A stretch of DNA of 32,000 bases from Candidatus Thorarchaeota archaeon (GTDB taxonomy: Archaea; Asgardarchaeota; Heimdallarchaeia; Hodarchaeales; Hodarchaeaceae). The notes beneath the pieces were generated by a model. It was given only the letters and a program-made list of their open reading frames with translations. It was not told the DNA's origin and searched no databases. This document shows, piece by piece, positions 12,128 through 27,747 of this stretch (positions are counted from its first letter, which is position 1; every line of letters starts with the position of its first letter). Where the stretch lies: the NCBI GenBank assembly GCA_048882505.1, contig JBHLRO010000004.1, positions 213,723 to 245,722 on the forward strand, in the 5' to 3' direction. The position numbers and the translations under genes are program-made.

Positions 12128-12532
12128 ATGTTGTCGAATTCTCTTGAGAAAATTGCTACCCAGACGACCAAAGTCAAACAGAACTTAACTCGGGCATCGG
12201 AAATTGCCAAAAAAATGCCAGATAAACTCAATAGGCTCTACCAAACCAATACAGACCTGAAAAAGGAAAAAGAAGAGTTAAGAAAGAAGAATGAAGAATT
12301 AAATCAGCAAGTTATAAAGCTGGAAGCGGACTTTTCCGCCCTGAAAACGGAATTCGACCACAAGCTAAATACAAGCGAAAACAAGATCGTTTCAGTTCAG
12401 CGTGAGCTCGAAATTACAAAAGATGACCTAAAATCTAAAATAGACCAAATTAACGCGAAGGAAGAGCGAATCAAAATCCTCGAAACTCAGAATAAGGAGT
12501 TAATGGAAAATCTTCGTCGAAGATCGGAATAA
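12128..12532 (+). CDS. Coiled-coil hypothetical protein (134 aa)
   Basis: TAGGTGAAAT SD before the ATG. Continuous heptad-pattern E/K/L-rich sequence. Confidence 0.8.
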   Translation: MLSNSLEKIATQTTKVKQNLTRASEIAKKMPDKLNRLYQTNTDLKKEKEELRKKNEELNQQVIKLEADFSALKTEFDHKLNTSENKIVSVQRELEITKDDLKSKIDQINAKEERIKILETQNKELMENLRRRSE

Positions 12533-12571
12533 CGATGGTCTTCATCCACTGACAAACTTGGAGCTGGATCA

Positions 12572-13312
12572 TTGCGAATTGCCTTCATATCTGACATTCA
12601 CGGCAATGTGGAAGCGCTAAAAACAGTTTTACAGGATATTGATGATCATGGCGGAGCTGATCTATTTTGTTGTAATGGGGATCTAGTTGGATATTATGCC
12701 CACCCACGAGAGTCGATCAGCCTAGTACGAGAAACATGCGGAAAGAGAGTAATCGTAGGAAATCATGATGAGGTGGTGAGGGTTAATGGACAGGAGGAGT
12801 TTGAGAATGAAATTGAGTGGTTTAACCATATTGCCCGTAAGGCGTTGGTATGGACAAGAAACGAACTCCTGGATACTGAGCAGATGCAGTATTTAAGGGC
12901 ACTTCCCATTCAAAAGGAGATAAATGCACAATCAAAGAAGATTTTACTGGTTCACGGAACACCTGAGGAAAAATGGGAATACTTCATCGTTTATCAGGGG
13001 CCTGGAGGACTGATGGCTGAGCAGAAAACCAGAATGCGAGGCTGGCTAAAAAAATGGGATATTGTTGTATTAGGCCATACCCACATTGCGTTCTCGTACA
13101 AGTTTCGCGGACGATACGTAATAAATCCTGGATCCGTTGGTCAGCCTAGAGACGGAGATCCTAGAGCAAGCTATGCGATTGTGGATCTAACAGACACAAA
13201 TATTAAAGCTCAACTTAAGCGAGTGGATTATTCGATTGAAAATACATGTAATTCATTGGCAAAAGTGGATTTGGACGATTATCTTTGTCAAAGGCTCTAT
13301 AACGGCAGATAA
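12572..13312 (+). CDS. Calcineurin-like metallophosphoesterase (YfcE/PPP-related family)
   Basis: Motifs 'ISDIHGN', 'GDLVGY', 'GNHD', 'VHG', 'GHTH' and 'NPGSVGQPRDGDPRASY'. Confidence 0.95.
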   Translation: MRIAFISDIHGNVEALKTVLQDIDDHGGADLFCCNGDLVGYYAHPRESISLVRETCGKRVIVGNHDEVVRVNGQEEFENEIEWFNHIARKALVWTRNELLDTEQMQYLRALPIQKEINAQSKKILLVHGTPEEKWEYFIVYQGPGGLMAEQKTRMRGWLKKWDIVVLGHTHIAFSYKFRGRYVINPGSVGQPRDGDPRASYAIVDLTDTNIKAQLKRVDYSIENTCNSLAKVDLDDYLCQRLYNGR

Positions 13313-13537
13313 TTTTGAATTGAGAGTGGAACAAGGAGATACCAGGGAAATTGGGGGATTATTTTCTAAAGAAAAGATTTAAAAATTTGAAAATTGTCCA
13401 GTTCATTGTAATAATCGAACTTTAATGCCACTTCTTACCTTTTCACCCTCTATTAATTAGAGAAGATTCTCGATAATTCTCTATATGTCATAAAAAAGGT
13501 ATTAGAGGTAGCTCTTGTCAGTATATGGTGTGAAATT

Positions 13538-15544
13538 TTGTCTGGAGAGTATAGTGCGCGAAGTATTCAAGTGCTGGAAGGTTTAGAGGCAGTTCGGCGT
13601 CGTCCTTCGATGTATATTGGAAGTGTCAGCGAAACGGGATTGCACCACCTAGTGTGGGAAATTGTGGACAATTCTGTGGACGAAGCCATGGCGGGCTATT
13701 GTACCCGTATTGTGGTCATTGTAGGACAGACTGAGGGAGGATTAGAGAGTGTCACTGTTCAGGACAACGGACGGGGCATTCCCACTGATAATCATCCCGA
13801 TTATGATATTTCGTCTCTCGAATTGGTCACTACTAGGCTGCATTCTGGAGGGAAATTCGGGGAAGAAGCTTACAAAGTTAGCGGGGGATTGCATGGTGTT
13901 GGTATAGCTGTAGTTAATGCCTTGTCGAGCTGGATGCAGGTTAAAGTAAAGAGAGACGGCAGGATTCTGATGCAGGAATACGTGAAGGGTGAAACAATCT
14001 CTCATGGCCTGATTGAGGTTGAAGAAGACTGGGAAGAAGAAACAGGAACCAGAATTAGCTTTATTCCCGACCCCGATATCTTTGAAACAACCCATTTTAC
14101 CACCCAACAGATCAGGAGTAGATTAAGGGAACTCGCATTCTTGAATAAAGGACTTGAAATTTTATTAATTGACAATCGACGTTATCTCAGTGATTTAGAG
14201 GGAGCTAAACCAGCTGAACGAGATCATACGGATTCCGAACCAGAATCTAACTCTGAAAAGGCTCTTTCTGAATGGCGATATTACTACGAGGGGGGAATTA
14301 GAGCCTATGTCGAACAACTTGCGCCACAGAAGGTACATGAAGATATACCATACTTTGATGAAACTATTGAAACTACACAAGTCGAAGTTGCCTTGGCATA
14401 TGATCGCTCCGAACGTGATCTCGTCTATACATTCACTAATAATATAAATACCAAACACGGCGGAACCCACCTATCAGGGTTTAAAGCAGGATTGACCCGG
14501 GCGATTAATGCATATGTTCAGAAGAACGAGCAGTTGATAAGGAATACACGGCTTAAGAAGGAACTTAGAGATAAAAGATCGATTTTTAGCGGAAATGACG
14601 TAAGGGAAGGTTTGGTTGCGGTCGTTTCTGTGAAAGTTATTAATCCTCAATTCGAAGGTCAAACCAAAAGTAAACTTGGAAATTCAGAAGTTAAAGGCGT
14701 GGTCGAACGTGGGACATATGAGAATATCCTACGATTCCTCGATGAACATCCGGTCGATGGACGGGAAATTATTCAGAAATGTGAGGAAGCGGCCTCGATT
14801 CGTATGAAATATCGTCAGCTTCGTGAGGCAATCAAGAAGACTCAGGCGAAGGGAACCGGAAAGCTAATAGATTGTTCGGAAACGGATCCTATTAGGCGCG
14901 AGCTTTTTCTCGTGGAGGGTGATTCTGCTGGAGGAAGTGCAATAGAGGGCCGCTTTAGTGAATTTCAGGCAATTCTACCGCTTCGAGGAAAGGTTATAAA
15001 TGTCGAAAAGGCTCGATTGGAGAAGGCAATGAAAAACAAGGAGATTCTTGAAATCATAAGGGCTGTCGGCGCTGGTTACAAAGAGAATTTCCAGATTGAA
15101 AATGTACGGTACCATAAGATTGTCTTACTGATGGATGCTGATGTTGATGGGCATCATATTGTGTGTCTGCTGTTAACCTTCTTTTTTCGATATATGCCCG
15201 AGTTGATTGACGAAGGTTACCTTTATATTGCGCAGCCTCCGCTCTACAGAATCAAAAAGGGCAACCAAGAAACTTATGTCTTGTCTGATCAAGAAAAAGA
15301 TGAAATCCAACAACAATGGGGAGGTAAGACTGAAGTTAGTCGGTTTAAAGGATTGGGAGAAATGAATCCTCTTCAATTACGAGAGACCGTTTTGGATCCT
15401 GCGAACAGGATTCTCCTCCAAGTCACACGAGATAATTTGATTGAAGCTGAACAGATGTTCGTAACACTTATGGGACTTGAAGTTTCGCCCCGACGTAAAT
15501 TTATAACAAGTCACGCCCTCGAAGTTGAGAGTTTGGATATATAG
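13538..15544 (+). CDS. gyrB: DNA gyrase subunit B
   Basis: GHKL motifs 'EIVDNSVDE', 'DNGRGIP', 'GGKF' and 'GGLHGVG'. Toprim 'EGDSAGG', 'PLRGK' and 'DADVDG'. Typical C-terminus 'RRKFI...LDI'. Confidence 0.97.
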   Translation: MSGEYSARSIQVLEGLEAVRRRPSMYIGSVSETGLHHLVWEIVDNSVDEAMAGYCTRIVVIVGQTEGGLESVTVQDNGRGIPTDNHPDYDISSLELVTTRLHSGGKFGEEAYKVSGGLHGVGIAVVNALSSWMQVKVKRDGRILMQEYVKGETISHGLIEVEEDWEEETGTRISFIPDPDIFETTHFTTQQIRSRLRELAFLNKGLEILLIDNRRYLSDLEGAKPAERDHTDSEPESNSEKALSEWRYYYEGGIRAYVEQLAPQKVHEDIPYFDETIETTQVEVALAYDRSERDLVYTFTNNINTKHGGTHLSGFKAGLTRAINAYVQKNEQLIRNTRLKKELRDKRSIFSGNDVREGLVAVVSVKVINPQFEGQTKSKLGNSEVKGVVERGTYENILRFLDEHPVDGREIIQKCEEAASIRMKYRQLREAIKKTQAKGTGKLIDCSETDPIRRELFLVEGDSAGGSAIEGRFSEFQAILPLRGKVINVEKARLEKAMKNKEILEIIRAVGAGYKENFQIENVRYHKIVLLMDADVDGHHIVCLLLTFFFRYMPELIDEGYLYIAQPPLYRIKKGNQETYVLSDQEKDEIQQQWGGKTEVSRFKGLGEMNPLQLRETVLDPANRILLQVTRDNLIEAEQMFVTLMGLEVSPRRKFITSHALEVESLDI

Positions 15545-15565
15545 ACCGCCAGGAGTTAAGTTGAG

Positions 15566-18049
15566 ATGAGTTCCAATGTTAAAGTGGTCCCAATTGAACA
15601 AACAATGTCCAAGAGTTATCTTGAATATTCAATGTCAGTTATTACATCGCGTGCCTTGCCGCATGTTAGGGACGGATTAAAACCAGTTCATCGACGTATT
15701 CTATGGGCAGCGCATAATCTTGGATTAACCCATAATCGACCACCTCGAAAATGTGCTCGTATCTCGGGGGAAGTTCTTGGAAAATATCACCCTCATGGGG
15801 ATGCAGCCGTTTACGATGCTCTAGTACGGATGGCTCAACCTTTTTCCCTTCGATATCCATTGATTCAGGGTCAGGGAAACTTTGGAAGCATGGATGGACA
15901 GCCCGCCGCAGCCCAACGTTACACAGAGGCCAGAATGGAGGGTATTACCGAGGAAATGCTCCTAGACATTGGTAAAGAGACAGTGGACTTTGTCGATAAC
16001 TTTGATGGATTGGATAAGGAACCTGTTATCCTACCTACGCGGATTCCGAATTTATTGATAAACGGGGTCATGGGAATAGCGGTAGGTATGGCAACAACCA
16101 TGCCTCCTCATAATTTGGGCGAAGTAATCGACGGGGTACTCGCTACAATTAACAATCCAGATATTACTATTGACCAACTTATGGAATATATTCCCGGACC
16201 AGATTATCCAACCGGAGGAGTGATTCATGGAACTTCAGGGATTAAAAGGGCGTACCATAAAGGGCAGGGAACCATAATACTGAGAGCACGCTACCATACA
16301 GAGGAAAAAAAGGGAAAAACACGAATCATTATTACCGAAGTACCTTATCTTGTAAAACGGCAGGATACAATAGATAACAGAGGTTTGGTTGATATAATTC
16401 TAAGAGAAAAAGAATTAGGAAAATTGGCCGATGTGGGGAGTGTCAGGAACGAATCTAGCATTATAAACGGCACCAAAATCGTCATAACTTTGAAAAGAAA
16501 CGCTAATCTCGATATTGTCTTGAATCGACTTTTCAAATACACTCCAATGCAAACATCTTTCTCTATCCGTAATATGGTACTCGTAGATGAACTGGTAGGA
16601 GAAACAACAAGATATCGACCTAAACTTCTAAACTTGAAGGGGTTAATCACCGAATTCATCAACCACCGGTTCCAAATAGTCGAACGAAGAACGCAATACG
16701 ATCTCCGCAAGGCACGAGAAAGAGCCCATATCCTAGAGGGACGTAAAATAGTAGTGGCGAACTTAGACGAAATAATCGCCCTGATCCGCGCCTCTGAATC
16801 TGGTGCACATGCCCAAGAATCATTGAAAGAGAAATTTTTGCTTTCTGAAATACAGTCCAAAGATATTTTGGGATTACCGCTTCGTAGCTTAACCCGTTTT
16901 GACCAAGAAAAGATATTGCGAGAGTATGATGAAACTTTAAGGCAGATAAAAGAATATGAGTCAATCCTTAAAGATAAAGATCGGATCTATGAAATCATCG
17001 TTGATGAACTGAAGGAGATCAAGAAAAAGCACGGCGATCCACGTCGAACGCTAATAAGATCGGAATCGCTGGACTGGTCTGAGAAAACCGAAGAGGATTT
17101 TATAACCAAAGAAGATATAGTAATAACGCTAACAAGCAAAGGTTATATCAAATCTATACCTGCAGAAACTTATAAAGCTCAGCATCGGGGTGGCAAGGGC
17201 ATCAAGGCGATGGAAATCGCCAAGGATGATTATTTGAAAGAAATGATCGTATGTTCAACCCATGATACCCTCCTTTTTCTGACCGTGAAGGGCTTGGTTT
17301 ACACGAAACGAGGTTTTCAGATTCCAATCTCTAAACAACGAGTAACCAAAGGAGTAAATATCGCTAATGTATTAAAACTAGAACGTGATGATGAAATTAG
17401 AACAATAATCCCTGTTTCAGAATTCAATGACGGACACTACCTTATTACCGCAACCAAAATGGGAATTATCAAAAAAACTCCATTGAAGGATTATGAACGC
17501 ATAAGGTCAACGGGAATTATTGCTCAACGTCTGCGAGATAGCGACGTCATTATAGGGGCCAAAGTAACAGATGGATCGAGAGGTATAATTCTTGCAACAT
17601 TGAAGGGCAAGGCGATCCGTTTTCCAGAGGACGAGATACGTGTTGTGAAGAGAAGTAGTATAGGGGTTCTTGGAATTCGCCTAAATCAAGGCGATTATGT
17701 GGTTGATTTGGCTTTGGTCCATCCTGGTAAGACCCTCTTGACTGTGACAGAAAATGGCTATGGCAAACGCTCGGAGTTTAAACATTATAGAATAACAAAA
17801 AGGAATGGCAAGGGGGTCATCAATATGAAAACAACAAAGAGAAATGGAGATGTAATAGCGGTACGTAGCGTTGCTGAAGATGATTATCTCTTGATGGTTG
17901 CGAACGATGGTAAATTAATCCAAATTGAAATCTCAAGTATCCGAGTTATTGGGAGAGCAACCGCAGGCGTCACCTTGATGCGAGTAAAACGTGAGGAAGG
18001 AGTAAAGATTTCCTCTATTGCTATTTTATCCTCAGAGACGAACGACTAG
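15566..18049 (+). CDS. gyrA: DNA gyrase subunit A
   Basis: 'RALPHVRDGLKPVHRR', 'GKYHPHGD', catalytic 'AAQRYTEAR', an intact GyrA-box 'QHRGGKG' (17180-17200) and a beta-pinwheel CTD. The GyrA-box points to gyrase rather than topo IV. Confidence 0.97.
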   Translation: MSSNVKVVPIEQTMSKSYLEYSMSVITSRALPHVRDGLKPVHRRILWAAHNLGLTHNRPPRKCARISGEVLGKYHPHGDAAVYDALVRMAQPFSLRYPLIQGQGNFGSMDGQPAAAQRYTEARMEGITEEMLLDIGKETVDFVDNFDGLDKEPVILPTRIPNLLINGVMGIAVGMATTMPPHNLGEVIDGVLATINNPDITIDQLMEYIPGPDYPTGGVIHGTSGIKRAYHKGQGTIILRARYHTEEKKGKTRIIITEVPYLVKRQDTIDNRGLVDIILREKELGKLADVGSVRNESSIINGTKIVITLKRNANLDIVLNRLFKYTPMQTSFSIRNMVLVDELVGETTRYRPKLLNLKGLITEFINHRFQIVERRTQYDLRKARERAHILEGRKIVVANLDEIIALIRASESGAHAQESLKEKFLLSEIQSKDILGLPLRSLTRFDQEKILREYDETLRQIKEYESILKDKDRIYEIIVDELKEIKKKHGDPRRTLIRSESLDWSEKTEEDFITKEDIVITLTSKGYIKSIPAETYKAQHRGGKGIKAMEIAKDDYLKEMIVCSTHDTLLFLTVKGLVYTKRGFQIPISKQRVTKGVNIANVLKLERDDEIRTIIPVSEFNDGHYLITATKMGIIKKTPLKDYERIRSTGIIAQRLRDSDVIIGAKVTDGSRGIILATLKGKAIRFPEDEIRVVKRSSIGVLGIRLNQGDYVVDLALVHPGKTLLTVTENGYGKRSEFKHYRITKRNGKGVINMKTTKRNGDVIAVRSVAEDDYLLMVANDGKLIQIEISSIRVIGRATAGVTLMRVKREEGVKISSIAILSSETND

Positions 18050-18065
18050 GTGGAATGTACACATC

Positions 18066-21000
18066 ATGACTAAAGCCACGAAATCTACAAAAGCTCAACG
18101 TCCCAAGAGCGCCTCTAGCTCAAAGGCCGCACAGGAGAAAGTGGTAAAACGTTCCGCTGCAGACTTCTTTCAGGATAATAAAGCGATTGCTGGCTTCGAT
18201 AACACAATGCGTGTTGTTTTTACTAGTATTCGGGAACTGGTCGAGAATGGGTTGGACGCCGCGGAACGCGTTGGGCATCTACCTGAGATCAGAGTGACAA
18301 TCCAACGGCTCTCACGAGATGAAATTGCGAAGTTATTGAATGTAACTCAATTTGAATCTTCAGAAAAGATCGATTTTCTACATTTAACTGTAAGAGACAA
18401 CGGATCAGGAATCCAATCTGAATTCGTACCACCACTTTTCGGACGTGTTTTAACTGGTAGCAACTACGGTGCTCGCCAGTCTCGTGGACGATTTGGATTA
18501 GGTGCCAAAATGGTTCTTTTGAACGCTATGTCCTCAGTCGATCTTCCATTGGTTATTAAAAGTAAACATCTAAACGAGGATTTTACAAGTTACCATGAGC
18601 TTATGATTAATCTTGCAGAAAATGAACCTATCATCATTAACCGACGTGAGGTTCCCCAGGGAACAGCGGAGGCAATTCCAAACTCTGGAACCGAGGTTAG
18701 TGTAACATTCACAGGGGCCTGGGGCCTTGCTGCTCGCTATGTGTACGATTATTTCTCCCAATTAGCACTGATTACTCCTTATGCCTCCTTTTACATTCAA
18801 TTTCCAGATAGCGATGTTCCAGTCGAGATGGAAAGAGTGGTAGAAGAAATGCCTGCGTATCCTCAAATTGCAAAGGTACACCCTTGGGGAACTGATATAA
18901 CTCAGTTCAAGCGAGAACTTGCCGTAACTCGAGCTTCGACAATGGAACAGTTTCTTCAGGAGCATTTCCAGGGCATCGGCGCAAAGACAGCCAAAGATTT
19001 CCTAGAGTTCGTGGAAATCCAAACCGATAAGCCTCCCGATAAGTTGGAGGCAAGCGAAATTCGGCGTATCGTCCATGAGGGATTTGTGATGCCCGATTCG
19101 GATCCAAAGAAACGGCGTACGCAGAAATATTTTCCCTTTAAACGTCCAAGTGGTGATTCCCTTGCTCCCCTGGGAGAAAACCTATTGGTAAAAGGAATCG
19201 AAACAGAACTATCGCCTCAATTCGTGAGGGCGGCTTCCGGAGATGTTTCTGCCTATTCTGGTCATCCTTTCGTCATCGAAGCTGCTTTGGCATATGGAGG
19301 GCCAAACCTCTCTGGTGAGATAGGGAGCCCAAAGATATATCGGTTTGCAAATCGGATACCGTTATTGTTTGGGGCAGGAAATGATATTATCACAAAATGC
19401 GTCCAAAAAATGAATTGGAAGAACTACAAGATTTCAATAAATAAATCGCCTATTGCTATCGTAGTTTCCGTAGTTTCGTCAAAAATACCATTTCCAGAAA
19501 CCAGTAAGGAGTATATTGCCGATGTGGACGAACTACGGGAAGAAATAAATCGAGTTCTGCGAAAATTAGCACGGGGATTGAGTCAACATTTAGGCCGAGC
19601 TGAAAGAGAACGTCGTGAAAAACAACGACAATCCCGTTTTGAAAGCGCCGCTCCCAAAGTGTTACGTAACTTGATGAATATTGTAGAAGAGACCCCATTC
19701 ATTCTAGAATCAGATGAAGAAGTTGCAAAACTTGAAAAAGCTCTGGCATCGGCAGTTCCCAGACTTGTTCGTCGAAAATATCCGCCAAGTCCCGCCATTT
19801 CCAGTATTGGGGAATGGCTTCCCACTGAAACCTACGGAACTTTGGTCGAGAACGATTTTCAAACGATATTTCAGTTTTTAAGGGCATCTAACGCGGAATT
19901 GAGCAAAATCACAGGCTTTAGTGAGGATCGTATCGATGATATAAAGCGAAGAACGGTTAACGATAAAGAACGTTCAAAACAGGCTCCTCTTATGCGGGAA
20001 TTTGAAGTTTTTAGCAAGAATATCGAAGATGATTTTAGTAAATATCGTGACATGCTTCGAATACATAAGACATTCAATAAGCGTTGGATCGTATCGTCTC
20101 TTGATTTATTTGCAACCCCAGTTTCCCAATTAAGGAATATAGAAGGATTTCCAGAGAAATTAATCTATGAATGTAAAATTAAAGCTGTCGAAATTCGATT
20201 AAACCAGAATTCAAGCGAAACTATTACAATGGAGAACGTTGAATGGGTGACGGATGACCTTCTCAGAGGCTTTAGAAAGGCAAAAATCGATACCATATTT
20301 GATTATATAATTGGCTTCCCTGAAAAATTGGCCCAGATATCGTCCCTAAACCGTCGACTCATCGAATGGGTTAAAGACGAGATCAAGAGAGGAATTAAGG
20401 CCGGTTATATAGATCCTGAGAGCGTCATTGGAGCCGCCTCTTTTGATTGGATGGATTATAAGGTTACTCCTCGTCTTCGCGGTCGAAAAATCTCAAAGAT
20501 TAAAGAGTTTCTTCAAACACCCTCTGAAACATTAGCAGAGTTACCTGAACTGGCCGAAAATCTGATTTTGCGCTCGAAACAGCTTTTTAAAGATAAACTG
20601 GAAGATTTCAATGATCCTGACTCTCTTATGGCTATTCCTGGAATTTCTGAATACATGCAATCTGATTTGACGCGCTTAGAGATCCGTGGATTGGTTGATT
20701 TCCTTTTGAAGGGGGAGAATGAACTTCATATTGTTAGAGGTTTCACGAATCAACTTATTAACATGAAACTAGACGAGATCTATGAGGAGATCATCCAAAA
20801 CCATGAAGCCTTTCCCATAAAAAACGCTTTATGGCTGGATCCTGACTTAGAATCGAAACTTAAGAGCTACAGGATCAATTATGTTTACGATTTTGTGAAA
20901 ACTGCTTCCTCCGAGCTTGAAAAGATTAAAGGAATGGATCCCCACATTTTAAGGACAATAAAAAGTGTTTATGGAACTCCTATACCGTTTCTTACCCCAG

Positions 21001-24000
21001 CTGAAATGAAATCATTAGAATCGAAGAAAATTTTCTGTTTAGAAGAGCTTTATACAGCCGTAAATAATCAACTTCTCCCATCTGGCGCATTGCGCACCAA
21101 AGTAAAGGACCTACTGGACATCCTTTCTCAGCCAATTTGCTTTTTACCTGTTTCAAGCAAATATTACCTATTGTTTCATAATCTCGGAGTATCTAGGATT
21201 TTCGATCTACTTATTTGGAATGACGCGGATCTGCACAAAACCACGAAGGTTTCGTACCAGGTTATTGATCAGATCAAGAGTACACTAAGTTTGGATGAGA
21301 TAAGGGAGTTGATTGAAGAAAAATCAATACCAATACCTGCATTGGGCGGCAATCTAAAGGGTAAAGCGTGGGCACCTCTACTGGAATCAGGTTTAAGCGT
21401 ACAGGCTCTCTATTATGCACTTCCATATTCAACCAAAGAAATGGACGAACTTAATCTTACAGATAAGATGAGAAAACAGCTAGTTCGTTTCTTTAGAACG
21501 CCTGTGACAAATTTGCCGCAGATAAAATCGAAATGGGCTTCACGCCTCCATTCAAATGGTATTAGTACCTTTATTGAAATAATAAGTTGGTCCCGTGAAG
21601 AATTGGTGAGGATCCTAGGTCGAGAGCGTAGTTTCGTTGATAACCTTTTTTCAGAATTTCCTCCTCTTAGATCTGGAATGCCTGTAATTAGCTTAGGTGT
21701 CTTTTCGGCTACTGAAATGAAAATATTAAGAGATTCAGGGTTTGAAACGGTCGAGGACATTTATTTTGGGTTTAAAAAAGAGCTCTTTAGTATAATGGGA
21801 GTTAAATGGAAAAAAATCGAACGATACCAGCGCCGCCTCGAAACGCCAATCGCGATGCTACAGCTGGCGACAACGGCAGAGGGGTCGCAAATCCGGATCT
21901 CTCACGCGGGAATAGAGAGATTGGCGACGAATACGATCGATCAAATCATTAAACTCGTATACTGGGATGATTCGGAATTAAAAACCATTTTAAAAATGTC
22001 TGATGAGCGGGTACAAGAATTAAAAAGATCTATAGCAATTAAGGAAGAAGGAATGCCATTGGGTAGAGTCAGTGGATTTACTCGAAAAGTAGCCGCAACA
22101 CTGACCGGGTATGGCATTGAAACGGTAGAAGATCTATATTTTAGTGCATCTGAAGATATGCTGGATGAGGAAGATGACCTTCAATGGGATGTGGTTAAGA
22201 AAGCAATGGAAGCCTTGGATCTTCCCATTTCATACCTTACTGGAGTGATTCCAGATAATTATATTGAGAAATTACTTGGCAAACGCATAGATACCATTAT
22301 TCGATTCCTGATAACGTCTCCCGAGGAGCTCTCATCTGTACTCGGAACTCCAATTGATAATATCGAAAATTTCCAGCAAAAAATTAACCTTATCGATCTC
22401 CGTGAATCCGCTGAAACGTCCATTTCTATTTTGGACGGATTAAAAAGAAAGGATATTACCACATTCGCGAACGAGGGAATATTAACCGTTTTTGACTTCC
22501 TAACCAGTCCAGATGAACAGATATCAAGTGTGTTGGCCATTGATGTCAAGAAGGTGGAATCAATGAAAAAAGATATACACTTTTCAAGCATAGAGACCAT
22601 AAAGGAAGAAAAAATGATACCCTTGTCATCAATAGCTATTTTTGATCGAAAAACCGTCAAAAAACTGGCGCGCCTTGGAATAGAGAGCCTTTCTGATCTC
22701 TATTATGTTGCAACTTCAAAGAATTTGGAAGAGAGTGCGGTTGAATGGCAGGAAATTCTTGACGCCCGCATTGTGTTAGATATGCCAATAATAGCGAGTT
22801 CTGAGGTATCTCACGAGGAAATTGAAATTCTTCGTAAAGCAAAGATCGTTCGGATTTTGGATTTAATGATGGATGCTACCGAAACTCTGGAAAAGCGAAC
22901 AAAGCTCTCTAGTGATCGCATCGAAACCATTAAGAAATCGATCAACTTTAATGAAATTCTTTCCCTCATTAAAAACCTTTCTTCCCTAAAACTTGATTTT
23001 CCTCCCGATTACAAGAGAAAGATTCAGACCTTAGGCCTTCAGACTATTTACGATTTATTAGCCCATCTTGATCCTGAATTCTATTTGGGCAAGGTTAACG
23101 ATCGAGCATATCGAATAGATTCCAAAAACTGGGAATCTTTATTCTCAGTATTATCTATCCCCATTTCGTTAATTTTGGGTTTGGATCCTACAACCATTAA
23201 ATTATTAAATAAAAAACAGATTCGTACTATGAGAGATGCGCTTGTTGCGTCTGAAACAAGGCTAGAGGGTATTGAGGGTATTGAGCCAGCTGAATTTATT
23301 TCCGATCTAAAAGCCTTGAGTTTTTCTGAAATATTTCAGTTCAAACAGATACCTATGGTCTTTATCCCGAACTTACCCACCGAGTTCATTTTTCCTCTGA
23401 TCGATAATAAGATAACTAGGGTAAAGCACCTGTTGGATGCTTCTCATAGTGATGTAGCAGCAGTTTTAGAAACCTCAAGCGCGCGTGTCCGTAAAATACT
23501 TACCGAATTGAGTATGCCTATAATCATCAAATCAATGGAAGACAATTCGACTCCTCTAGGTCAGTTTTCCTCCCTTGTTTCGAAATCTACCCTACAAAAG
23601 CTTTCCAATGTTGGGATTAGCACCGTTCAAGAATTATATTTGCACGATCGTGAACAACTCAGCTATGAGGGACTCTCGGGATTATTTACTTTATTAGATC
23701 TTCCGATTAATCGGTTATCACCTGATATACCGACTGGGGATCTTAGGAAGCTGTCACAATACGGAATAAATACCCTGTTCCGATGGTTCTTAATGCCAAA
23801 TCCAAATCTTTCAAAAATACTAGGAATGGAGATCAGTGAGATAAAAGAACTCAAGAAAGAATTCGACCCAGAGACGGCTTCATCCGCCAAATTAAGTGAA
23901 ACGGATGTACCCCTAAAGGCTATCGTTGAGACGGGGTACATTGATTTTGATGAACTAGGGAAGGTTGGAATCCAAACATTAGAGGATATGCTATTTGCTG

Positions 24001-25034
24001 ATTTAGAAACTTTAGAATGCTCTGACAAGGTTAAAAAGCGCCTTAATGATCTGATTGATGCAGCAAACTCTTCATTAGCATATTATTCTTTATTAGATCC
24101 AACCTACGTCATGCCACTAGCATTTAACGGTATCACGTCCGTTAGACTATTGATTCAGAGTGATTTTTCACAGATTCGGGACAATATGGGCATCATTGAC
24201 GAAAATGAATATAATACAGCCCGTTCATCTGTGAATCTTGTTAATATTCTGACGCACAAGAAGACTGAATCCGAATTTCGCGTAAAACTGTCTTCACTAA
24301 GGGCCTTTACCCCCAAACAGCTAGAAGTGGTTCAAAAACTGGGAATAGATAATGTGGTTGACCTATATTTTCTTCTAGATCCAGATAAATGTCCTAAATC
24401 AGTAGCAGGTTCAGTGGATAGCGTCAAAAGAGTCTTAGAGAAGCCCTTTGCATCGTTAACTAGTATTAGTGCACCAAATTTAGCACCAAAGGTAGCTTTA
24501 TTATTTAACGCTGGAATTACTTCAATCATCGAATTTCTATTTTGGCCGAAATCTGATCTCGCTGAGCTCTTGGAAATTAAACGATATGAATTAAACAGGT
24601 TTAGAAAGATAAATCTTGGTGATTTAAGAAGGAAGAAGCTCGGTACCCCTCTCGAGAACTTTGTGAGACTCCCTGAAGAGTATATTAAACCTTTAAACGA
24701 ATATGGCATGGATTACATCGAAGATCTTTACTTTTACCTTAAGCGTTATCCAACACTAATACCTGACGATTCGATTCCAGGAAAAATGCGAAATGAATGG
24801 GTTAAGGATCTTGATTCGCCGATTGTGCGACTAGCGGGTTTGCCTATTCCCGTTACTCAGGAATTAATCACAAAGGGAGTAAATCGAATCATTGATTTCT
24901 TATATTGGCCTATGGATGAACTAAAACAGGTATATGGCTTATCAGAGACCAAAATAAAATCAATTAAGAAAAATGTCCGTTTAAGACGAAAAAAAGATGT
25001 ATTGGGACAACTAGACAAGTTTATGGGAGAATAG
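18066..25034 (+). CDS. top6B: DNA topoisomerase VI subunit B fused to a ~1750-aa array of HhH-like repeats
   Basis: 'RELVENGLDA', 'DNGSGI', 'RQSRGRFGLG', H2TH 'FQGIGAKTA', 'RFANRIPLLF', WKxY motif 'WKNY' and transducer 'KIPFPETSKEYI'. Start set at ATG 18066 (AGGTGG upstream) because the track's 18018 start overlaps gyrA. The frame stays open to 25034. Confidence 0.93.
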   Translation: MTKATKSTKAQRPKSASSSKAAQEKVVKRSAADFFQDNKAIAGFDNTMRVVFTSIRELVENGLDAAERVGHLPEIRVTIQRLSRDEIAKLLNVTQFESSEKIDFLHLTVRDNGSGIQSEFVPPLFGRVLTGSNYGARQSRGRFGLGAKMVLLNAMSSVDLPLVIKSKHLNEDFTSYHELMINLAENEPIIINRREVPQGTAEAIPNSGTEVSVTFTGAWGLAARYVYDYFSQLALITPYASFYIQFPDSDVPVEMERVVEEMPAYPQIAKVHPWGTDITQFKRELAVTRASTMEQFLQEHFQGIGAKTAKDFLEFVEIQTDKPPDKLEASEIRRIVHEGFVMPDSDPKKRRTQKYFPFKRPSGDSLAPLGENLLVKGIETELSPQFVRAASGDVSAYSGHPFVIEAALAYGGPNLSGEIGSPKIYRFANRIPLLFGAGNDIITKCVQKMNWKNYKISINKSPIAIVVSVVSSKIPFPETSKEYIADVDELREEINRVLRKLARGLSQHLGRAERERREKQRQSRFESAAPKVLRNLMNIVEETPFILESDEEVAKLEKALASAVPRLVRRKYPPSPAISSIGEWLPTETYGTLVENDFQTIFQFLRASNAELSKITGFSEDRIDDIKRRTVNDKERSKQAPLMREFEVFSKNIEDDFSKYRDMLRIHKTFNKRWIVSSLDLFATPVSQLRNIEGFPEKLIYECKIKAVEIRLNQNSSETITMENVEWVTDDLLRGFRKAKIDTIFDYIIGFPEKLAQISSLNRRLIEWVKDEIKRGIKAGYIDPESVIGAASFDWMDYKVTPRLRGRKISKIKEFLQTPSETLAELPELAENLILRSKQLFKDKLEDFNDPDSLMAIPGISEYMQSDLTRLEIRGLVDFLLKGENELHIVRGFTNQLINMKLDEIYEEIIQNHEAFPIKNALWLDPDLESKLKSYRINYVYDFVKTASSELEKIKGMDPHILRTIKSVYGTPIPFLTPAEMKSLESKKIFCLEELYTAVNNQLLPSGALRTKVKDLLDILSQPICFLPVSSKYYLLFHNLGVSRIFDLLIWNDADLHKTTKVSYQVIDQIKSTLSLDEIRELIEEKSIPIPALGGNLKGKAWAPLLESGLSVQALYYALPYSTKEMDELNLTDKMRKQLVRFFRTPVTNLPQIKSKWASRLHSNGISTFIEIISWSREELVRILGRERSFVDNLFSEFPPLRSGMPVISLGVFSATEMKILRDSGFETVEDIYFGFKKELFSIMGVKWKKIERYQRRLETPIAMLQLATTAEGSQIRISHAGIERLATNTIDQIIKLVYWDDSELKTILKMSDERVQELKRSIAIKEEGMPLGRVSGFTRKVAATLTGYGIETVEDLYFSASEDMLDEEDDLQWDVVKKAMEALDLPISYLTGVIPDNYIEKLLGKRIDTIIRFLITSPEELSSVLGTPIDNIENFQQKINLIDLRESAETSISILDGLKRKDITTFANEGILTVFDFLTSPDEQISSVLAIDVKKVESMKKDIHFSSIETIKEEKMIPLSSIAIFDRKTVKKLARLGIESLSDLYYVATSKNLEESAVEWQEILDARIVLDMPIIASSEVSHEEIEILRKAKIVRILDLMMDATETLEKRTKLSSDRIETIKKSINFNEILSLIKNLSSLKLDFPPDYKRKIQTLGLQTIYDLLAHLDPEFYLGKVNDRAYRIDSKNWESLFSVLSIPISLILGLDPTTIKLLNKKQIRTMRDALVASETRLEGIEGIEPAEFISDLKALSFSEIFQFKQIPMVFIPNLPTEFIFPLIDNKITRVKHLLDASHSDVAAVLETSSARVRKILTELSMPIIIKSMEDNSTPLGQFSSLVSKSTLQKLSNVGISTVQELYLHDREQLSYEGLSGLFTLLDLPINRLSPDIPTGDLRKLSQYGINTLFRWFLMPNPNLSKILGMEISEIKELKKEFDPETASSAKLSETDVPLKAIVETGYIDFDELGKVGIQTLEDMLFADLETLECSDKVKKRLNDLIDAANSSLAYYSLLDPTYVMPLAFNGITSVRLLIQSDFSQIRDNMGIIDENEYNTARSSVNLVNILTHKKTESEFRVKLSSLRAFTPKQLEVVQKLGIDNVVDLYFLLDPDKCPKSVAGSVDSVKRVLEKPFASLTSISAPNLAPKVALLFNAGITSIIEFLFWPKSDLAELLEIKRYELNRFRKINLGDLRRKKLGTPLENFVRLPEEYIKPLNEYGMDYIEDLYFYLKRYPTLIPDDSIPGKMRNEWVKDLDSPIVRLAGLPIPVTQELITKGVNRIIDFLYWPMDELKQVYGLSETKIKSIKKNVRLRRKKDVLGQLDKFMGE
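19788..25034 (+). repeat. Protein-level tandem array of ~28 HhH / RNAP-alpha-CTD / Rad51-N-like repeats (~62 aa average)
   Basis: Recurrent pattern [TM]P[IL]..[LI]..h.......L...GI.T[IV].[DE][LF][LY], e.g. SGFETVEDIY, YGIETVEDLY, EGILTVFDFL, VGISTVQELY, AGITSIIEFL, KGVNRIIDFL. I counted 28 cores by eye. The copies have diverged at DNA level. Confidence 0.85.
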
Positions 25035-25046
25035 GAGGTTTTACTT

Positions 25047-26447
25047 GTGGCTACAATCGTTATAGAAGATGCAACAGGTCTTTCAAAGAAAATTATCCAA
25101 AGCGAATTAGAGGAAGATAGCTCAGTCCGAATCATCCGAGCTCTGGTGAAAAAGGAACTCGATTTAGGTAAACAACCTTTTCAGGTGTTTTTCGGGAAAA
25201 AGCAAGACAAGAACTTTAAGGAGCTTAATGAAAGAACTTTAGATGAGTTTAAGGGGCTTAAAAAGGATAATATAGACCTGATATTGCGTATCCGAAGAAA
25301 AATTGACCTAAACAAACTTCAAAGTCTTCATAAAGTTGTTTCAGATCAGGATGTTGATCTTCCAGTAAGTGTATTGAAGGTTGATAATGTTGAGCCTTCA
25401 GAAACAAAACGCAGGTTACAAGATGTAGCTAGAGAGTTTCTTGAGGAAATTGCCGTTAATCCAGATGGAGCCGCCTTTCGAATTCCAGCCCGTAGTTCAG
25501 AAAATGTAGGGTATGATGATAGCTCAAAAATGGTTCTTTTGGGGAGTCATGTTGTTGATCGTCAGTTTCGTCATTTAAGTAGCGTTCAAGGCATTGTTCA
25601 GCTTACAGGCCTAATGCGGTACATTAATGAGATTCTTGACGCAGAAAAACATGCCACGAAGCGCCATTTATTCTATAGGGACGTGAATCTGTTCGGGAAC
25701 CAACGCGTCTCTGATACCTTGATAGAAGATTTGGGTGCCCTTCTTCGAGTATCTCGTAATTCTCTAAACGTAATTGCTTCTGCAAAAGGCAAAGTTATAG
25801 GCAGACTGACCTTTACAGAAGGTGGAGATTTCATAGATTGTACCCAGGGTTTGGGGGGGCATGCTATTACGCCTATGCTGGATCAAATAGATAATTTTGA
25901 AAGCGACGCGGAATTCGTTTTGGTAATCGAGAAAGACGCAGTATTTCAAGATCTGGCGGAAGACAAGTTCTTTAACTATATACCATGTATTTTGGTTACG
26001 GCCTCAGGTCAACCTGATATGGCCACACGTCTTTTTCTCAAACGATTGTATGAGGAGGTGAAACTTCCTATTTTAGGATTCTTGGACGCCGATCCATATG
26101 GATTGGACATCCTTCGGGTATATAGCATTGGTTCAAAGGCGTTAAGTTTCGAATCCGTTGAGATGGCGATTCCAGATATTCGTTGGTTGGGTTTACTTCC
26201 CTCAGATATAAAAGAATATCAGATCCCTAAATCGGTGCTTATCAAAATGACAGATAATGACATCAAACGAGCTGATGATCTTCTTAAGGAGGATTTCGTT
26301 AAATCACGGCCTGAGTGGGAGAGGCAAATCCAAATTATGAAGGATACGGGTCACAAGGCCGAAATTCAGGCCCTAGCTTCTAAAGATTGGCGGTTTATGA
26401 CGAATACCTATCTCCCGAGCAAGCTAGACTCTGGTAGTTGGGTTTGA
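25047..26447 (+). CDS. top6A: DNA topoisomerase VI subunit A (Spo11 family) with an N-terminal ubiquitin-like domain
   Basis: GGAGG SD plus GTG start. Catalytic Tyr in 'TKRHLFY' (codon 25674-25676), Toprim 'VIEKDAVF' and 'DADPYG', and 'KAEIQAL'. There are ~110 extra N-terminal residues. Confidence 0.95.
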   Translation: MATIVIEDATGLSKKIIQSELEEDSSVRIIRALVKKELDLGKQPFQVFFGKKQDKNFKELNERTLDEFKGLKKDNIDLILRIRRKIDLNKLQSLHKVVSDQDVDLPVSVLKVDNVEPSETKRRLQDVAREFLEEIAVNPDGAAFRIPARSSENVGYDDSSKMVLLGSHVVDRQFRHLSSVQGIVQLTGLMRYINEILDAEKHATKRHLFYRDVNLFGNQRVSDTLIEDLGALLRVSRNSLNVIASAKGKVIGRLTFTEGGDFIDCTQGLGGHAITPMLDQIDNFESDAEFVLVIEKDAVFQDLAEDKFFNYIPCILVTASGQPDMATRLFLKRLYEEVKLPILGFLDADPYGLDILRVYSIGSKALSFESVEMAIPDIRWLGLLPSDIKEYQIPKSVLIKMTDNDIKRADDLLKEDFVKSRPEWERQIQIMKDTGHKAEIQALASKDWRFMTNTYLPSKLDSGSWV

Positions 26448-26475: not shown

Positions 26476-27165
26476 TTGTTGAGACTACTGATGCTGTCGA
26501 TGTCGTTCTTCATTGTTCCAGGCTTTGAAAACATCGATCATGGGGAGGTACGTCGAATATTAGATCTTGTTCAGAGCGTCATTGCTTTCTCACAGGGCCA
26601 ACCACTACATAAGAAAGCCATTGGTAGGATCACCAAAAAATTGGGGTCTCGAATGAGTGGTAGCATATTATTTCCTGGAGGGTCCAGTGTCCTTTTTGCT
26701 TGGCGTTTCCCAATCGAAAAGATCGGGGCTGTTGTGGTAAAACCTTACTATAATGGCACAATTACCCGCCTTCTGATACATTATTTCACCCAGATTGATT
26801 ATCTCCAAACTTACACAGATAAAGACTTCCTGTCTCCCAATGGTAAGGTAATTTTACTCAATATTCCTCAAGTGGTTGGTTTCGCGAAGATCGAAACCTT
26901 CAATCGTGAATTTCCAACTTTATTGGTAGAAGAAGCGCTGGGAGAATCTATTCAAGCAAATCCGACTTTGATTCGCCAAGTAAGCGAGATTGTACGTCGA
27001 ATGGCTTTGAAAGGGCTTATTTTCGACTTTTATCCTTCAAATTGGAAACTTCATGGAAAAAAACTGACTTACGTGGATCTATTGAGCTCAAATAAACTAA
27101 AAAATCTGAGAGAAAGAATTACTCAACTATTGGAAAAGATTGAGTCTCAGACAGCGAAAATGTGA
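26476..27165 (+). CDS. Atypical protein-kinase-like fold protein (Bud32/RIO/APH-like)
   Basis: Ordered kinase motifs: Gly-loop 'PGGSSVLF', beta3 Lys 'VVVKPY', 'IPQVVG', hinge 'LLVEEALG', catalytic loop 'GLIFDFYPSNW' and 'YVDL'. The start may be ATG 26491 or 26500. Confidence 0.65.
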   Translation: MLRLLMLSMSFFIVPGFENIDHGEVRRILDLVQSVIAFSQGQPLHKKAIGRITKKLGSRMSGSILFPGGSSVLFAWRFPIEKIGAVVVKPYYNGTITRLLIHYFTQIDYLQTYTDKDFLSPNGKVILLNIPQVVGFAKIETFNREFPTLLVEEALGESIQANPTLIRQVSEIVRRMALKGLIFDFYPSNWKLHGKKLTYVDLLSSNKLKNLRERITQLLEKIESQTAKM

Positions 27166-27180
27166 CTTGCAATATTGGGA

Positions 27181-27747
27181 TTATAACTCCCCGTCACGGT
27201 AATACACTGCGCGCCTTATTGCTGAAGCAAAAGCAGTCCCGACTCCTTTTCCCGTGACCGCAGAGGTGGGAAAGTAAGGGGCATTTAATTTATCTGCGAA
27301 CCTTTGTCCGATCTCATCCTGGAATTCCCTATCTTTGATGTCAATTTTATTTGCACAAAGTACCGCTGGCACAGTTCCTAGCGTTTTCTTAACTTCTTTC
27401 ACCCAATAGGGAAGTGAAATAAGGGTTGATTCTCGTGTGACATCCGCAACGTAGATAACTGAGTGTGCTCCTTCATAGAATATGGGACGAACCTTATCAA
27501 AGGTTGGTTGGCCAGAAAGATCCCAAAAAATCGCTGTTGTATGGCCTGCAGTTTTCTCAGGTGCTCTAATTTTCAGGAAAGATATATCGGCTCCAGCAGT
27601 TGGTTTATGTTCAAAATCTCTTCTCGTAAAGACTGATACAAGCTGAGTTTTCCCTACTAAGGGATCCCCCACTATTACGATCTTGTATTGAGCATGATGT
27701 GGAATTTCAAAGAGAATTTCTTCTTGGGACATGATAAAAAACTCCAT
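27181..27747 (-). CDS. Rab-like small GTPase
   Basis: G1 GDPLVGKT, G2 PTAG, G3 WDLSGQ, 'RPIFYEGA', G4 NKID, G5 SAV. The start may be the second ATG at 27732. Confidence 0.95.
   Translation of the reverse strand: MEFFIMSQEEILFEIPHHAQYKIVIVGDPLVGKTQLVSVFTRRDFEHKPTAGADISFLKIRAPEKTAGHTTAIFWDLSGQPTFDKVRPIFYEGAHSVIYVADVTRESTLISLPYWVKEVKKTLGTVPAVLCANKIDIKDREFQDEIGQRFADKLNAPYFPTSAVTGKGVGTAFASAIRRAVYYRDGEL

Follow-up and report, generated by a model that had tools for sequence, protein, structure and literature searches.

The window, meaning the whole 32,000 nt stretch of DNA that was analysed, comes from an Asgard archaeon of Heimdallarchaeia/Hodarchaeales type and contains the genes for gyrase and topoisomerase VI (Topo VI) in the order gyrB-gyrA-top6B-top6A. 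This cluster order is conserved, and the adjacency of gyrA and top6B is kept across the genus. The top6B gene is exceptionally long, and its product consists of a Topo VI B subunit core followed by an array of helix-hairpin-helix (HhH) units. The features are:

13538-15544, + strand: gyrB, directly upstream and on the same strand as top6B
15566-18049, + strand: gyrA, with its stop 16 nt ahead of the top6B ATG
18066-25034, + strand: top6B, complete gene (2,322 codons and a stop), with no other long frame in this interval
18066-19700, + strand: canonical Top6B core, aa 1-545 (N-terminal strap, GHKL ATPase, H2TH, transducer)
18234-18260, + strand: N-box ELVENGLDA, aa 57-65, aligned with the S. 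shibatae motif
18396-18413, + strand: G1 box DNGSGI, aa 111-116, aligned with the S. shibatae motif
18486-18509, + strand: G2 box GRFGLGAK, aa 141-148, aligned with the S. shibatae motif
about aa 264-338, + strand: H2TH, contiguous alignment over the S. shibatae H2TH region and a weak match to NFACT_N (H2TH-containing)
19146-19628, + strand: transducer, Topo-VIb_trans at aa 361-521 (Pfam E 2.3e-51, full model 1-159)
19416-19427, + strand: WKNY, aa 451-454, the transducer WKxY motif
19497-19520, + strand: switch-Lys region ETSKEYIA, aa 478-485, with K481, aligned to SAGKESIA
19629-19790, + strand: post-transducer helical segment and linker, aa 522-575 (alignment to 2zbk_B reaches aa 541; model helix at 550-562)
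19791-24980, + strand: array of 28 (HhH)2-type units, aa 576-2305, mean period 62.0 aa
24276-24980, + strand: distal tip of the array, units 25-28, aa 2071-2305, with conserved charges of +3.5, +4.0, -4.5 and +3.4
24981-25031, + strand: basic C-terminal peptide RLRRK-x-DV-x-G-x-LD-x-YM, conserved among orthologues
25047-26447, + strand: top6A, 466 aa, matching 2zbk_A with E 3.7e-59

From the ATG at 18066 the top6B frame runs uninterrupted for 2,322 aa, with a predicted product of about 265 kDa, and a 93 %-identical orthologue (P0002) is of equal length. A TTG at 18018 is an alternative start that would run over the gyrA stop, and the length of the orthologue favours the ATG. The original prediction had named a stop codon or frameshift near 19790 as the finding that would split the frame into two genes; none was present in the contig from run X1, in run X2 or in the relatives. 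A single X1 contig covers 18000-24094 with 0 differences. Run X2, which belongs to a separate study, shows substitutions only, with no indels and no joints, and 36 of the 40 variants listed are at the third codon position. No DNA-level tandem repeats were found in the array region, and more than 60 full-length relatives are known from independent assemblies. On these grounds, together with the single contig across the junction and the lack of indels in both runs, an assembly or frameshift artefact was ruled out.

The array is under strong purifying selection. In 26 orthologues with 57-62 % identity the tail aligns gap-free, with no unit gained or lost in the family. The core has a dN/dS of 0.062 and the tail one of 0.111, and the two tail segments with the lowest values, residues 1141-1640 (0.063) and 2001-2322 (0.079), match the core in constraint. 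The distal tip falls inside the second of these.

Residues 21-541 matched the S. shibatae Top6B (2zbk_B) with an E value of 2.6e-84, and the same core matched the M. mazei Top6B (2q2e_B) with 4.3e-65. The Pfam HATPase_c match at aa 55-150 scored 26.1 bits, marginally below the cut-off of 26.4. The order of GHKL, H2TH and transducer is the same as in the canonical archaeal Top6B of S. shibatae (530 aa) and M. mazei (621 aa), and this locus shares with canonical archaeal Topo VI both the catalytic motifs and an adjoining Top6A partner. The giant protein is a Topo VI B subunit with a normal GHKL-H2TH-transducer core in which all catalytic motifs are kept, and the intact core in a single ORF that had been described from the letters was confirmed. 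The enzyme is a type IIB Topo VI, with putative ATP-dependent strand passage by an A2B2 assembly.

In M. mazei, the segment corresponding to aa 522-575 is a C-terminal helical hairpin through which Top6B is fixed to the winged-helix domain of Top6A (PMC13040014). Beyond it the proteins differ. The S. shibatae Top6B ends in one or two helices, whereas the giant ends in approximately 1,750 aa of HhH units. The M. mazei Top6B ends in an Ig-like C-terminal domain of about 100 aa, whereas the giant is all-helical here and fourfold larger in total. An Ig-like, beta-rich domain of the M. mazei type after the transducer was ruled out, as both structural models show a tail made up almost wholly of helices.

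The adjoining Top6A keeps the catalytic tyrosine of the FYR motif and the Toprim motifs EKD and DADPYG. It has about 118 extra N-terminal residues, and a Pfam scan gave nothing significant for its first 198 aa or for the 229-aa ORF downstream. A second, ordinary Top6B gene was not found in this 94.5 %-complete genome. With only one Top6B gene and an intact Top6A beside it, the giant protein is the cell's single housekeeping Topo VI B subunit.

Within residues 576-2305, an HMM trained on the tail itself detected 23 units at significance and three weakly, and two more were seen only in the models; among 20 shuffled tails used as a control, 19 gave 0 matches and one gave 1 match. DSSP assignments on two AlphaFold models gave 14 + 14 = 28 helix-hairpin-helix units whose anchors lie 62.0 aa apart on average, in line with the approximately 28 repeats of about 62 aa that had been predicted. 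The unit consensus, TPISSLSGLPPKTIKKLRKNGIDTIIDLLFWSDEELSKILGVSEDRIEEIKKELK, agrees with the signature read earlier from the translation (tPi..l..l......L...GI.Tv.dl). In the distal half there is a partial alternation of A-type units (GI-ETVEDLYF, without the second hairpin) and B-type units.

The model of residues 546-1440 has a pLDDT of 88.5 and a pTM of 0.74, and that of residues 1441-2322 has values of 84.0 and 0.55. Both are almost entirely helical and include just two short stretches with pLDDT <50 and no disordered linkers. By prediction the whole array is ordered and packs as a defined rigid arm, with the inter-domain geometry across about 900 residues uncertain as the models rest on alignments of 39-42 rows. 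An A2B2 enzyme would bear two such arms.

Each unit is a compact five-helix domain with two helix-hairpin-helix motifs (the DSSP pattern recurs 28 times, the A-type units being without the second hairpin motif). The VIA wide search matched a single unit to the RAD51D N-domain with Z 9.4 and an rmsd of 1.9 Å over 58 residues. Other matches were to the AF1548 C-domain (Z 8.7), RAD51C (8.6-8.7) and Pol iota (8.0) and, more weakly, to the alpha-CTD (6.5-6.9) and NusA-AR2 (6.7), with SAM domains also present; Z values below about 13 can occur by chance among helical folds, and the sequence-profile matches agree with these fold matches. The HhH/SAM-like matches expected from the sequence were obtained. 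Pfam totals over the units were 81.9 bits for RAD51D_N (cut-off 27.3) and 61.6 bits for HHH_5 (cut-off 27), and RNA_pol_A_CTD fell slightly short (22.2 bits against 23.8). In profile searches the nearest sequence relatives were NusA-AR, alpha-CTD and RAD51-paralogue N-domains (E 2e-4 to 1e-3). The best single-unit structural matches, N-domains of RAD51/RadA paralogues, alpha-CTD and NusA AR1/AR2, span Z 9.4-6.5 and rmsd 1.6-2.8 Å over 56-63 residues. Such domains occur once or twice per protein, whereas here 28 linker-free units form a subfamily of their own.

When the two roughly 890-residue models were compared with the PDB and AFDB clusters using Foldseek, nothing significant was found, and the best rows for the two (E 0.011 and 2.8e-3) had a TM of about 0.08, the models being too long. 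Fragments of topoisomerase V (Topo V) topped the array-level rows (E 0.011-0.18, TM 0.08), also non-significant. To our knowledge, Topo V of Methanopyrus kandleri is the sole characterised topoisomerase with a long C-terminal tandem (HhH)2 array, and the array described here is the longest of this kind we know of, the benchmark being the 12 domains of Topo V. Topo V had been proposed as the closest precedent and remains the sole array-level structural neighbour, although a non-significant one. The likeness consists of the C-terminal tandem (HhH)2 array and the best array-level Foldseek row. The catalytic domains, type IC in Topo V and type IIB in the giant, are unrelated, the domains number 12 and 28, respectively, and the DNA-facing cavity of Topo V is slightly positive whereas the tail of the giant is net acidic, with some units strongly so. 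The likeness between the two arrays is convergent, not homologous.

A full-text literature search found no published description of the giant Top6B HhH array, as the original prediction had supposed. Villain et al. 2022 (PMC9348778) report gyrase-encoding Asgard archaea in which Top6B has a C-terminal extension and propose that it is an adaptation to gyrase. There the extension is named merely 'a globular domain', and the searchable text gives no size, HhH identity or repeat count for it. Database entries for the giant Top6B are annotated just as 'DNA topoisomerase VI subunit B'.

A search for full-length homologues found that the architecture is class-wide and so not unique to this genome. 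Of the six families of the class that were sampled, five have a giant Top6B (about 2,300-4,340 aa) as sole copy, and these (f1-f5) all carry gyrase, the GyrA-CTD being detected in 8/9, 22/23, 7/7, 1/1 and 2/2 genomes, respectively. The sixth family, f6, has neither. The GyrA-CTD was also found in f13 (39/41), f26 (3/3) and f21 (1/1), where Top6B is 993-1,178 aa long in the four genomes measured; the remaining 19 families sampled gave a single match, in f10 (1/43). For 14 of these 19 a Top6B ORF was listed, and it is 500-760 aa long in all but f6 and f19. The exception to the link with gyrase is f19, which has a giant Top6B with a basic tail yet no gyrase found in 4/4 genomes, and the correlation as a whole involves few independent lineages. 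This family-level survey agrees with the co-occurrence of extension and gyrase reported by Villain et al. 2022 (PMC9348778). Across families the array varies two-fold, from about 28 to about 60 units, and over the class the accessory region ranges from about 1,750 to 3,800 aa.

The tail has a pI of 5.56 and a net charge of -25, and the core a pI of 9.0. An acidic tail (pI 5.0-6.2) is common to nearly the whole family. The neighbouring GyrB (pI 5.45) and Top6A (pI 5.52) are likewise acidic, so the tail is better described as not enriched in positive charge than as unusually acidic. Each hairpin has one Gly; across 613 aligned units it is kept in 54 % for hairpin 1 and in 36 % for hairpin 2. In the same alignment, conservation between units is almost purely that of the hydrophobic core and there is no basic position common to all, the position equivalent to alpha-CTD R265 reading as basic in about a third of units. 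Unit charge is unit-specific and conserved among orthologues, with a between-unit SD of 3.26 against a within-unit SD of 1.54. Units 5, 13, 15, 23 and 27 are conservedly acidic (-4.5 to -9; unit 13 is at -9.1 +/- 1.0), which excludes a continuous DNA track. The C-terminal peptide was considered as a PIP-box and this was ruled out, as its residues are not spaced as in Qxx[LIM]xx[FY][FY] and the Gln lacks conservation.

We tentatively prefer a reading, at a probability of roughly 45 %, in which the arm engages DNA or chromatin as an accessory, governs the choice of DNA segments that come to the enzyme and thereby determines which substrates it acts on or where it is localised. The array begins just after the segment anchoring Top6B to Top6A at the DNA gate, and this is where the G-segment arms leave Topo VI (PMC13040014). 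Only some of the units, basic ones, would touch DNA, chiefly those of the distal tip (25, 26 and 28) together with the RLRRK peptide; the rest, which include several strongly acidic units, would serve as a rigid spacer, with no uniform DNA-coating track. Contact through a subset has a precedent in Topo V, in which only some (HhH)2 domains touch DNA. Such an arm could make Topo VI favour crossings between distant DNA segments or between separate molecules (decatenation), and this bias could divide labour with the co-occurring gyrase, encoded immediately upstream in this genus. The conserved basic charge fingerprint of the distal tip and the basic C-terminal peptide were counted for a DNA reading, along with the starting point of the array and the DNA-encircling (HhH)2 domains of Topo V. 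The net acidic tail, the weak conservation of the hairpin Gly and the acidic units were counted against it, as were the protein-binding NusA acidic repeats among the nearest sequence relatives, the few lineages behind the gyrase link with f19 as its exception, and the unit-specific, orthologue-conserved surfaces, which are a hallmark of scaffold or docking arrays.

We consider it rather unlikely that the arm is instead a docking scaffold or tether that does not bind DNA, its 28 surfaces anchoring Topo VI to replisome, segregation or chromatin proteins or to the envelope. Topo VI would then be sequestered or targeted, so that it does not compete with gyrase; a 'sequestration' idea for Topo VI is reportedly found in Corbett 2007 and likewise in Villain 2022. 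The acidic repeats of NusA bind proteins, and NusA-AR, alpha-CTD and RAD51-paralogue N-domains serve in protein docking as much as in DNA binding. That these relatives and the SAM domains among the fold matches are all protein-contact domains speaks for docking, as do the unit-specific conserved charge, the restriction of likeness between units to core residues, the net acidic tail and a unit number that is constant within the family (26 orthologues). The co-occurrence of giant Top6B with gyrase and the proposal of C-terminal extensions as a gyrase adaptation (Villain et al., PMC9348778) point the same way. However, no gene with a known docking role was found among the conserved neighbours, the two-fold variation in length is odd for a fixed set of partners, Topo V is a DNA-binding precedent for HhH domains on a DNA enzyme, and the distal tip and C-terminal peptide are basic.

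It is improbable that the arms act through geometry alone, as an architectural cage or ruler in which two rigid arms fence off a volume and select the T-segments that reach the ATP gate. Plectonemic neighbours would be excluded and catenane crossings favoured, with no need for specific binding of DNA or protein. This would accord with the high pTM and the absence of flexible linkers, with strong selection on the whole length, acidic units included, and with the position of the arm, which leaves Top6B at the DNA-gate end (PMC13040014). The Topo VI of M. mazei acts preferentially in decatenation and responds to the geometry of the crossing (PMC8837201). The uncertain inter-domain geometry of models built on so few alignment rows counts against a cage, and the unit-specific surface conservation suggests that something is bound. 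A query for a tip-to-tip ring, in which two copies of residues 2001-2322 were submitted to complex prediction, scored 0.00 and counts neither way.

A decidedly improbable possibility is that two rigid arms, each tens of nm long and made of 28-60 HhH domains, bridge or entrap distant DNA or dock chromatin, having co-evolved with the acquisition of gyrase and partitioning supercoiling control from decatenation. If true, they would be a functional analogue of the scaffold role of eukaryotic Topo II or of SMC-type arms. The original proposal of a uniform, non-specific DNA-wrapping and processivity arm like that of Topo V, coating tens of nanometres of duplex, has very little chance of being right: it has in its favour the tandem (HhH)2 architecture, the weak Topo V rows at the top of the Foldseek list and the Topo V domains themselves, which surround DNA, touch it directly at few points and raise activity (bioRxiv 10.1101/2021.08.20.457074), but against it stand the net charge of -25 with strongly acidic units such as unit 13, the poorly conserved hairpin glycines, the lack of basic positions common to all units and an array-level similarity to Topo V that is non-significant.

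The Asgard class of this archaeon is often placed nearest the eukaryotes, and its only Topo VI B subunit bears an accessory of approximately 1,750-3,800 aa that is under strong constraint. Whether DNA, as in the DNA- or chromatin-engaging reading that we prefer, or protein, the ligand of the arm would reveal how gyrase and Topo VI divide their labour in these cells and would directly test the gyrase-adaptation hypothesis of Villain et al. It might also expose a new coupling of topoisomerase action with chromosome organisation.

Polymerases have been made more processive and more salt-tolerant with HhH domains of Topo V (PMC8313265), and the giant array is, by the same token, a natural library of 28 divergent HhH modules. 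Within this genome the unit subfamily is confined to top6B, and it is rare in general, with 159 representatives among 1.84 billion. Stand-alone arrays were considered and rejected, as the strong matches with no core are nearly all internal fragments of giant Top6B on short contigs. A few unrelated proteins have 4-7 alpha-CTD-type units, which belong to a different subfamily.

A single long frame occupies window positions 18018/18066–25034 (+ strand), and translation from the ATG at 18066 gave a stop-free top6B product of 2,322 residues. A 93%-identical orthologue is likewise 2,322 aa long, in agreement with this start. A TTG lies in frame 16 codons 5' of the ATG (window 18018–18065), and a start there would overlap the gyrA stop (18049); on the orthologue lengths, we favour the ATG. 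The gap of 16 nt between the gyrA stop and this ATG is consistent with co-transcription. Residues 21–541 aligned with the solved S. shibatae Top6B (E 2.6e-84), and the core was found to be intact, as originally predicted, with all of the following elements preceding the HhH matches.

Features of Top6B (window 18066–25034, + strand; residue numbers)
55–150, HATPase_c domain (Pfam)
57–65, N-box, ELVENGLDA
111–116, G1 box, DNGSGI
141–148, G2 box, GRFGLGAK
361–521, Topo VI-B transducer (Pfam, E 2.3e-51)
451–454, WKNY motif
478–485, switch-lysine segment, ETSKEYIA
remainder after the transducer, Pfam matches to RAD51D_N, HHH_5, RNA_pol_A_CTD and further HhH families

The continuity of the frame from core into array, a point on which the original prediction depended, holds in two sequencing runs, neither of which shows an indel or joint. 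In run X1, window 18000–24094 is covered by one contig with 0 differences, and the independent run from another study (X2) differed by substitutions only, 36 of the 40 listed falling at third codon positions. Repetition at the nucleotide level is absent. Comparison with the 93%-identical orthologue gave the core a dN/dS of 0.062 and the tail one of 0.111, and two tail segments (residues 1141–1640, 0.063; 2001–2322, 0.079) were as constrained as the core. The tails of 26 orthologues with 57–62% identity could be aligned essentially without gaps (tail identity 54%, core 79%), and therefore each unit has its own orthologue. Top6B is single-copy in this genome (94.5% complete), where the repeat subfamily is confined to it.

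Slices of 70 aa from the tail matched other tail slices at E 1e-6 to 1e-9, and an iterated HMM seeded from these matches settled at 23 units, each about 55 aa long, plus three weak ones, spanning residues 576–2305; shuffled tails gave essentially zero units. Two AlphaFold models, built from 39–42 orthologous rows, covered residues 546–1440 (pLDDT 88.5, pTM 0.74) and 1441–2322 (pLDDT 84.0, pTM 0.55). Each contains 14 copies of the helix-hairpin-helix secondary-structure signature, including where the list derived from sequence had seemed to skip units, which brings the array to 28. Together with a mean anchor-to-anchor distance of 62.0 aa, this bears out the predicted count of about 28 and period of about 62 aa. 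A-type units (GI-ETVEDLYF, lacking the second hairpin motif) partially alternate with B-type units over the distal half, and unit similarity is higher at lag 2 (35.3) than at lag 1 (28.0). Over the two models together, pLDDT fell below 50 in two six-residue stretches only and long linkers were absent; the high pTM over about 890 residues suggests that the units pack as a defined rigid body, not as beads on a string.

When single units were compared with about 48,000 solved chains by a method independent of Foldseek, the matches were the RAD51D N-domain (Z 9.4, rmsd 1.9 Å over 58 residues), the AF1548 C-domain (8.7), the RAD51C N-domain (8.6–8.7), the Pol iota HhH thumb (8.0), the yeast Rad51 N-domain (7.1), RNAP alpha-CTD (6.5–6.9), NusA-AR2 (6.7) and SAM domains (5–6). 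The 23-unit profile matched NusA AR1/AR2, alpha-CTD and RAD51D/RAD51 N-domains by sequence. As structure and profile concur, the units are assigned as (HhH)2-type domains, and the HhH-like fold that had been expected was recovered. With Foldseek the whole-array models had no significant structural neighbour; the top rows were Topo V fragments (E 0.011–0.18, TM about 0.08), and AFDB clusters yielded nothing better.

The tail is acidic (pI 5.56, net charge −25), as in nearly all family members. In an alignment of 613 units, conservation falls on hydrophobic core positions; the two hairpin glycines are conserved in 54% and 36%, and no basic position is common to all units. From orthologue to orthologue each unit keeps its own charge (SD 3.26 between units, 1.54 within them). 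Units 5, 13, 15, 23 and 27 are strongly acidic. Units 25, 26 and 28 are basic, and beyond them lies a conserved C-terminal peptide, RLRRK-x-DV-x-G-x-LD-x-YM.

To our knowledge, Topo V is the only characterised topoisomerase with a tandem (HhH)2 array, a feature shared with the Top6B described here even though the array-level structural match is not significant. Topo V activity is raised by these domains, which encircle DNA but touch it directly at few points and whose interior is slightly positive (bioRxiv 10.1101/2021.08.20.457074). In M. mazei a helical segment fixes Top6B onto the winged-helix domain of Top6A, adjacent to the DNA gate, and there the DNA arms exit along Top6B (PMC13040014); the array in our protein starts right after the equivalent segment. 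Because of this position and the Topo V precedent, we favour some engagement of DNA by the arm. Our leading, still tentative reading (probability about 0.45) is a rigid arm in which a subset of basic units, above all at the distal tip, would touch DNA or chromatin and so bias the segments handled by Topo VI; decatenation would plausibly be favoured where gyrase manages supercoiling. A pure protein-docking scaffold is the strongest rival, though an unlikely one, and a geometric cage is considerably less probable. The uniform non-specific wrapping arm originally proposed is improbable: the (HhH)2-type array on an intact Top6B stands, but uniformity fits poorly with the acidic tail, the weakly conserved hairpin glycines, the lack of a basic position common to all units and the conserved acidic units, an argument from charge tempered by the acidity of GyrB and Top6A from the same locus.

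This is a bona fide Topo VI carrying an unprecedented accessory arm. In public databases such proteins are named only 'DNA topoisomerase VI subunit B', and HhH-family matches are already computed for them. In agreement with the original prediction, openly searchable full text and targeted reading of topoisomerase VI, Asgard and archaeal-topology papers contained no account of a Top6B with an HhH array. Villain et al. 2022 described the extension in gyrase-bearing Asgard archaea as a 'globular domain' (PMC9348778), and Brinkmeier et al. 2022 entered Asgard TopoVIB as 'CTD +'. The giant Top6B is real but not confined to this genome, as 201 surveyed genomes from the phylum showed.

Top6B size and genomes with a GyrA C-terminal domain, by sampled family
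f1 (own class): ~2,312–2,342 aa, sole copy; 8/9
f2 and f4 (own class): ~4,140–4,305 aa, sole copy; 22/23 and 1/1
f3 (own class): 2,258–3,587 aa, sole copy; 7/7
f5 (own class): >2,500–2,820 aa, sole copy; 2/2
f6 (own class): two copies, ~505 and ~1,110 aa; 0/3
f13, f26, f21: 993–1,178 aa; 39/41, 3/3, 1/1
f19: giant of ~2,290 aa, ~6 kb from an ordinary 564-aa copy; 0/4
Other classes, mostly: 500–760 aa; remaining families, one genome only (f10, 1/43)

Extended Top6B and gyrase co-occur at the family level, with few independent events and f19 as an exception; this accords with, and sharpens, the observation of Villain et al. Tail length is graded: the HhH tail of P0106, a Top6B of 1,074 aa, is short. 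The unit profile had 159 matches among 1.84 billion representative proteins (27 at E ≤ 1e-30), the strong ones being nearly all giant Top6B proteins, whole or as internal fragments. The giant/ordinary pair of f19, which belongs to another class, is at G041:C6:522196-528528 (locus L015 and vicinity). P0048, P0049 and P0052, which match the f19 giant in length and may come from that family, have basic tails (pI 6.8–8.9) in contrast to the acidic tails elsewhere. Another Top6B relative, P0082 (1,386 aa), contains intein/homing-endonuclease families (PF14528, PF14890), so its extra length differs in origin from the HhH array. In several Asgard genomes (including G181, G184, G152, G115, G157 and G163) GyrA C-domain repeats lie in frames of 1,266–1,738 aa instead of the usual ~810–850 aa; such frames may represent GyrA with an extension, a fusion or an intein. 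Four small, unrelated public-metagenome proteins of 450–1,050 aa (P0109, P0111, P0113, P0114) carry 4–7 tandem RNAP alpha-CTD-type domains and make up a separate, apparently undescribed family of tandem HhH arrays.

The same-strand order gyrB, gyrA, top6B, top6A is conserved within the genus and at 61% identity, and is absent from f2. The top6A product (466 aa) retains the catalytic tyrosine and Toprim motifs. It matches solved Top6A from residue 119 onward only, with no Pfam or PDB sequence match for residues 1 to ~118 (window 25047–25400). A coiled-coil ORF and a metallophosphoesterase lie 5' of gyrB (block window 12128–18049; counterpart L017:4062-9984, an orthologous locus), an order also retained down to 61% protein identity; given this conservation, the block from the coiled-coil ORF to top6A may be a single unit of regulation. 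Directly 3' of top6A is a basic 229-aa ORF (window 26476–27165, + strand, pI 9.85) without a Pfam match, which occupies the equivalent place at the orthologous loci L016 and L017, where it measures 221 and 183 aa. The next gene in every case is an oppositely oriented Ras/Arf-like small GTPase (here window 27181–27747, − strand).
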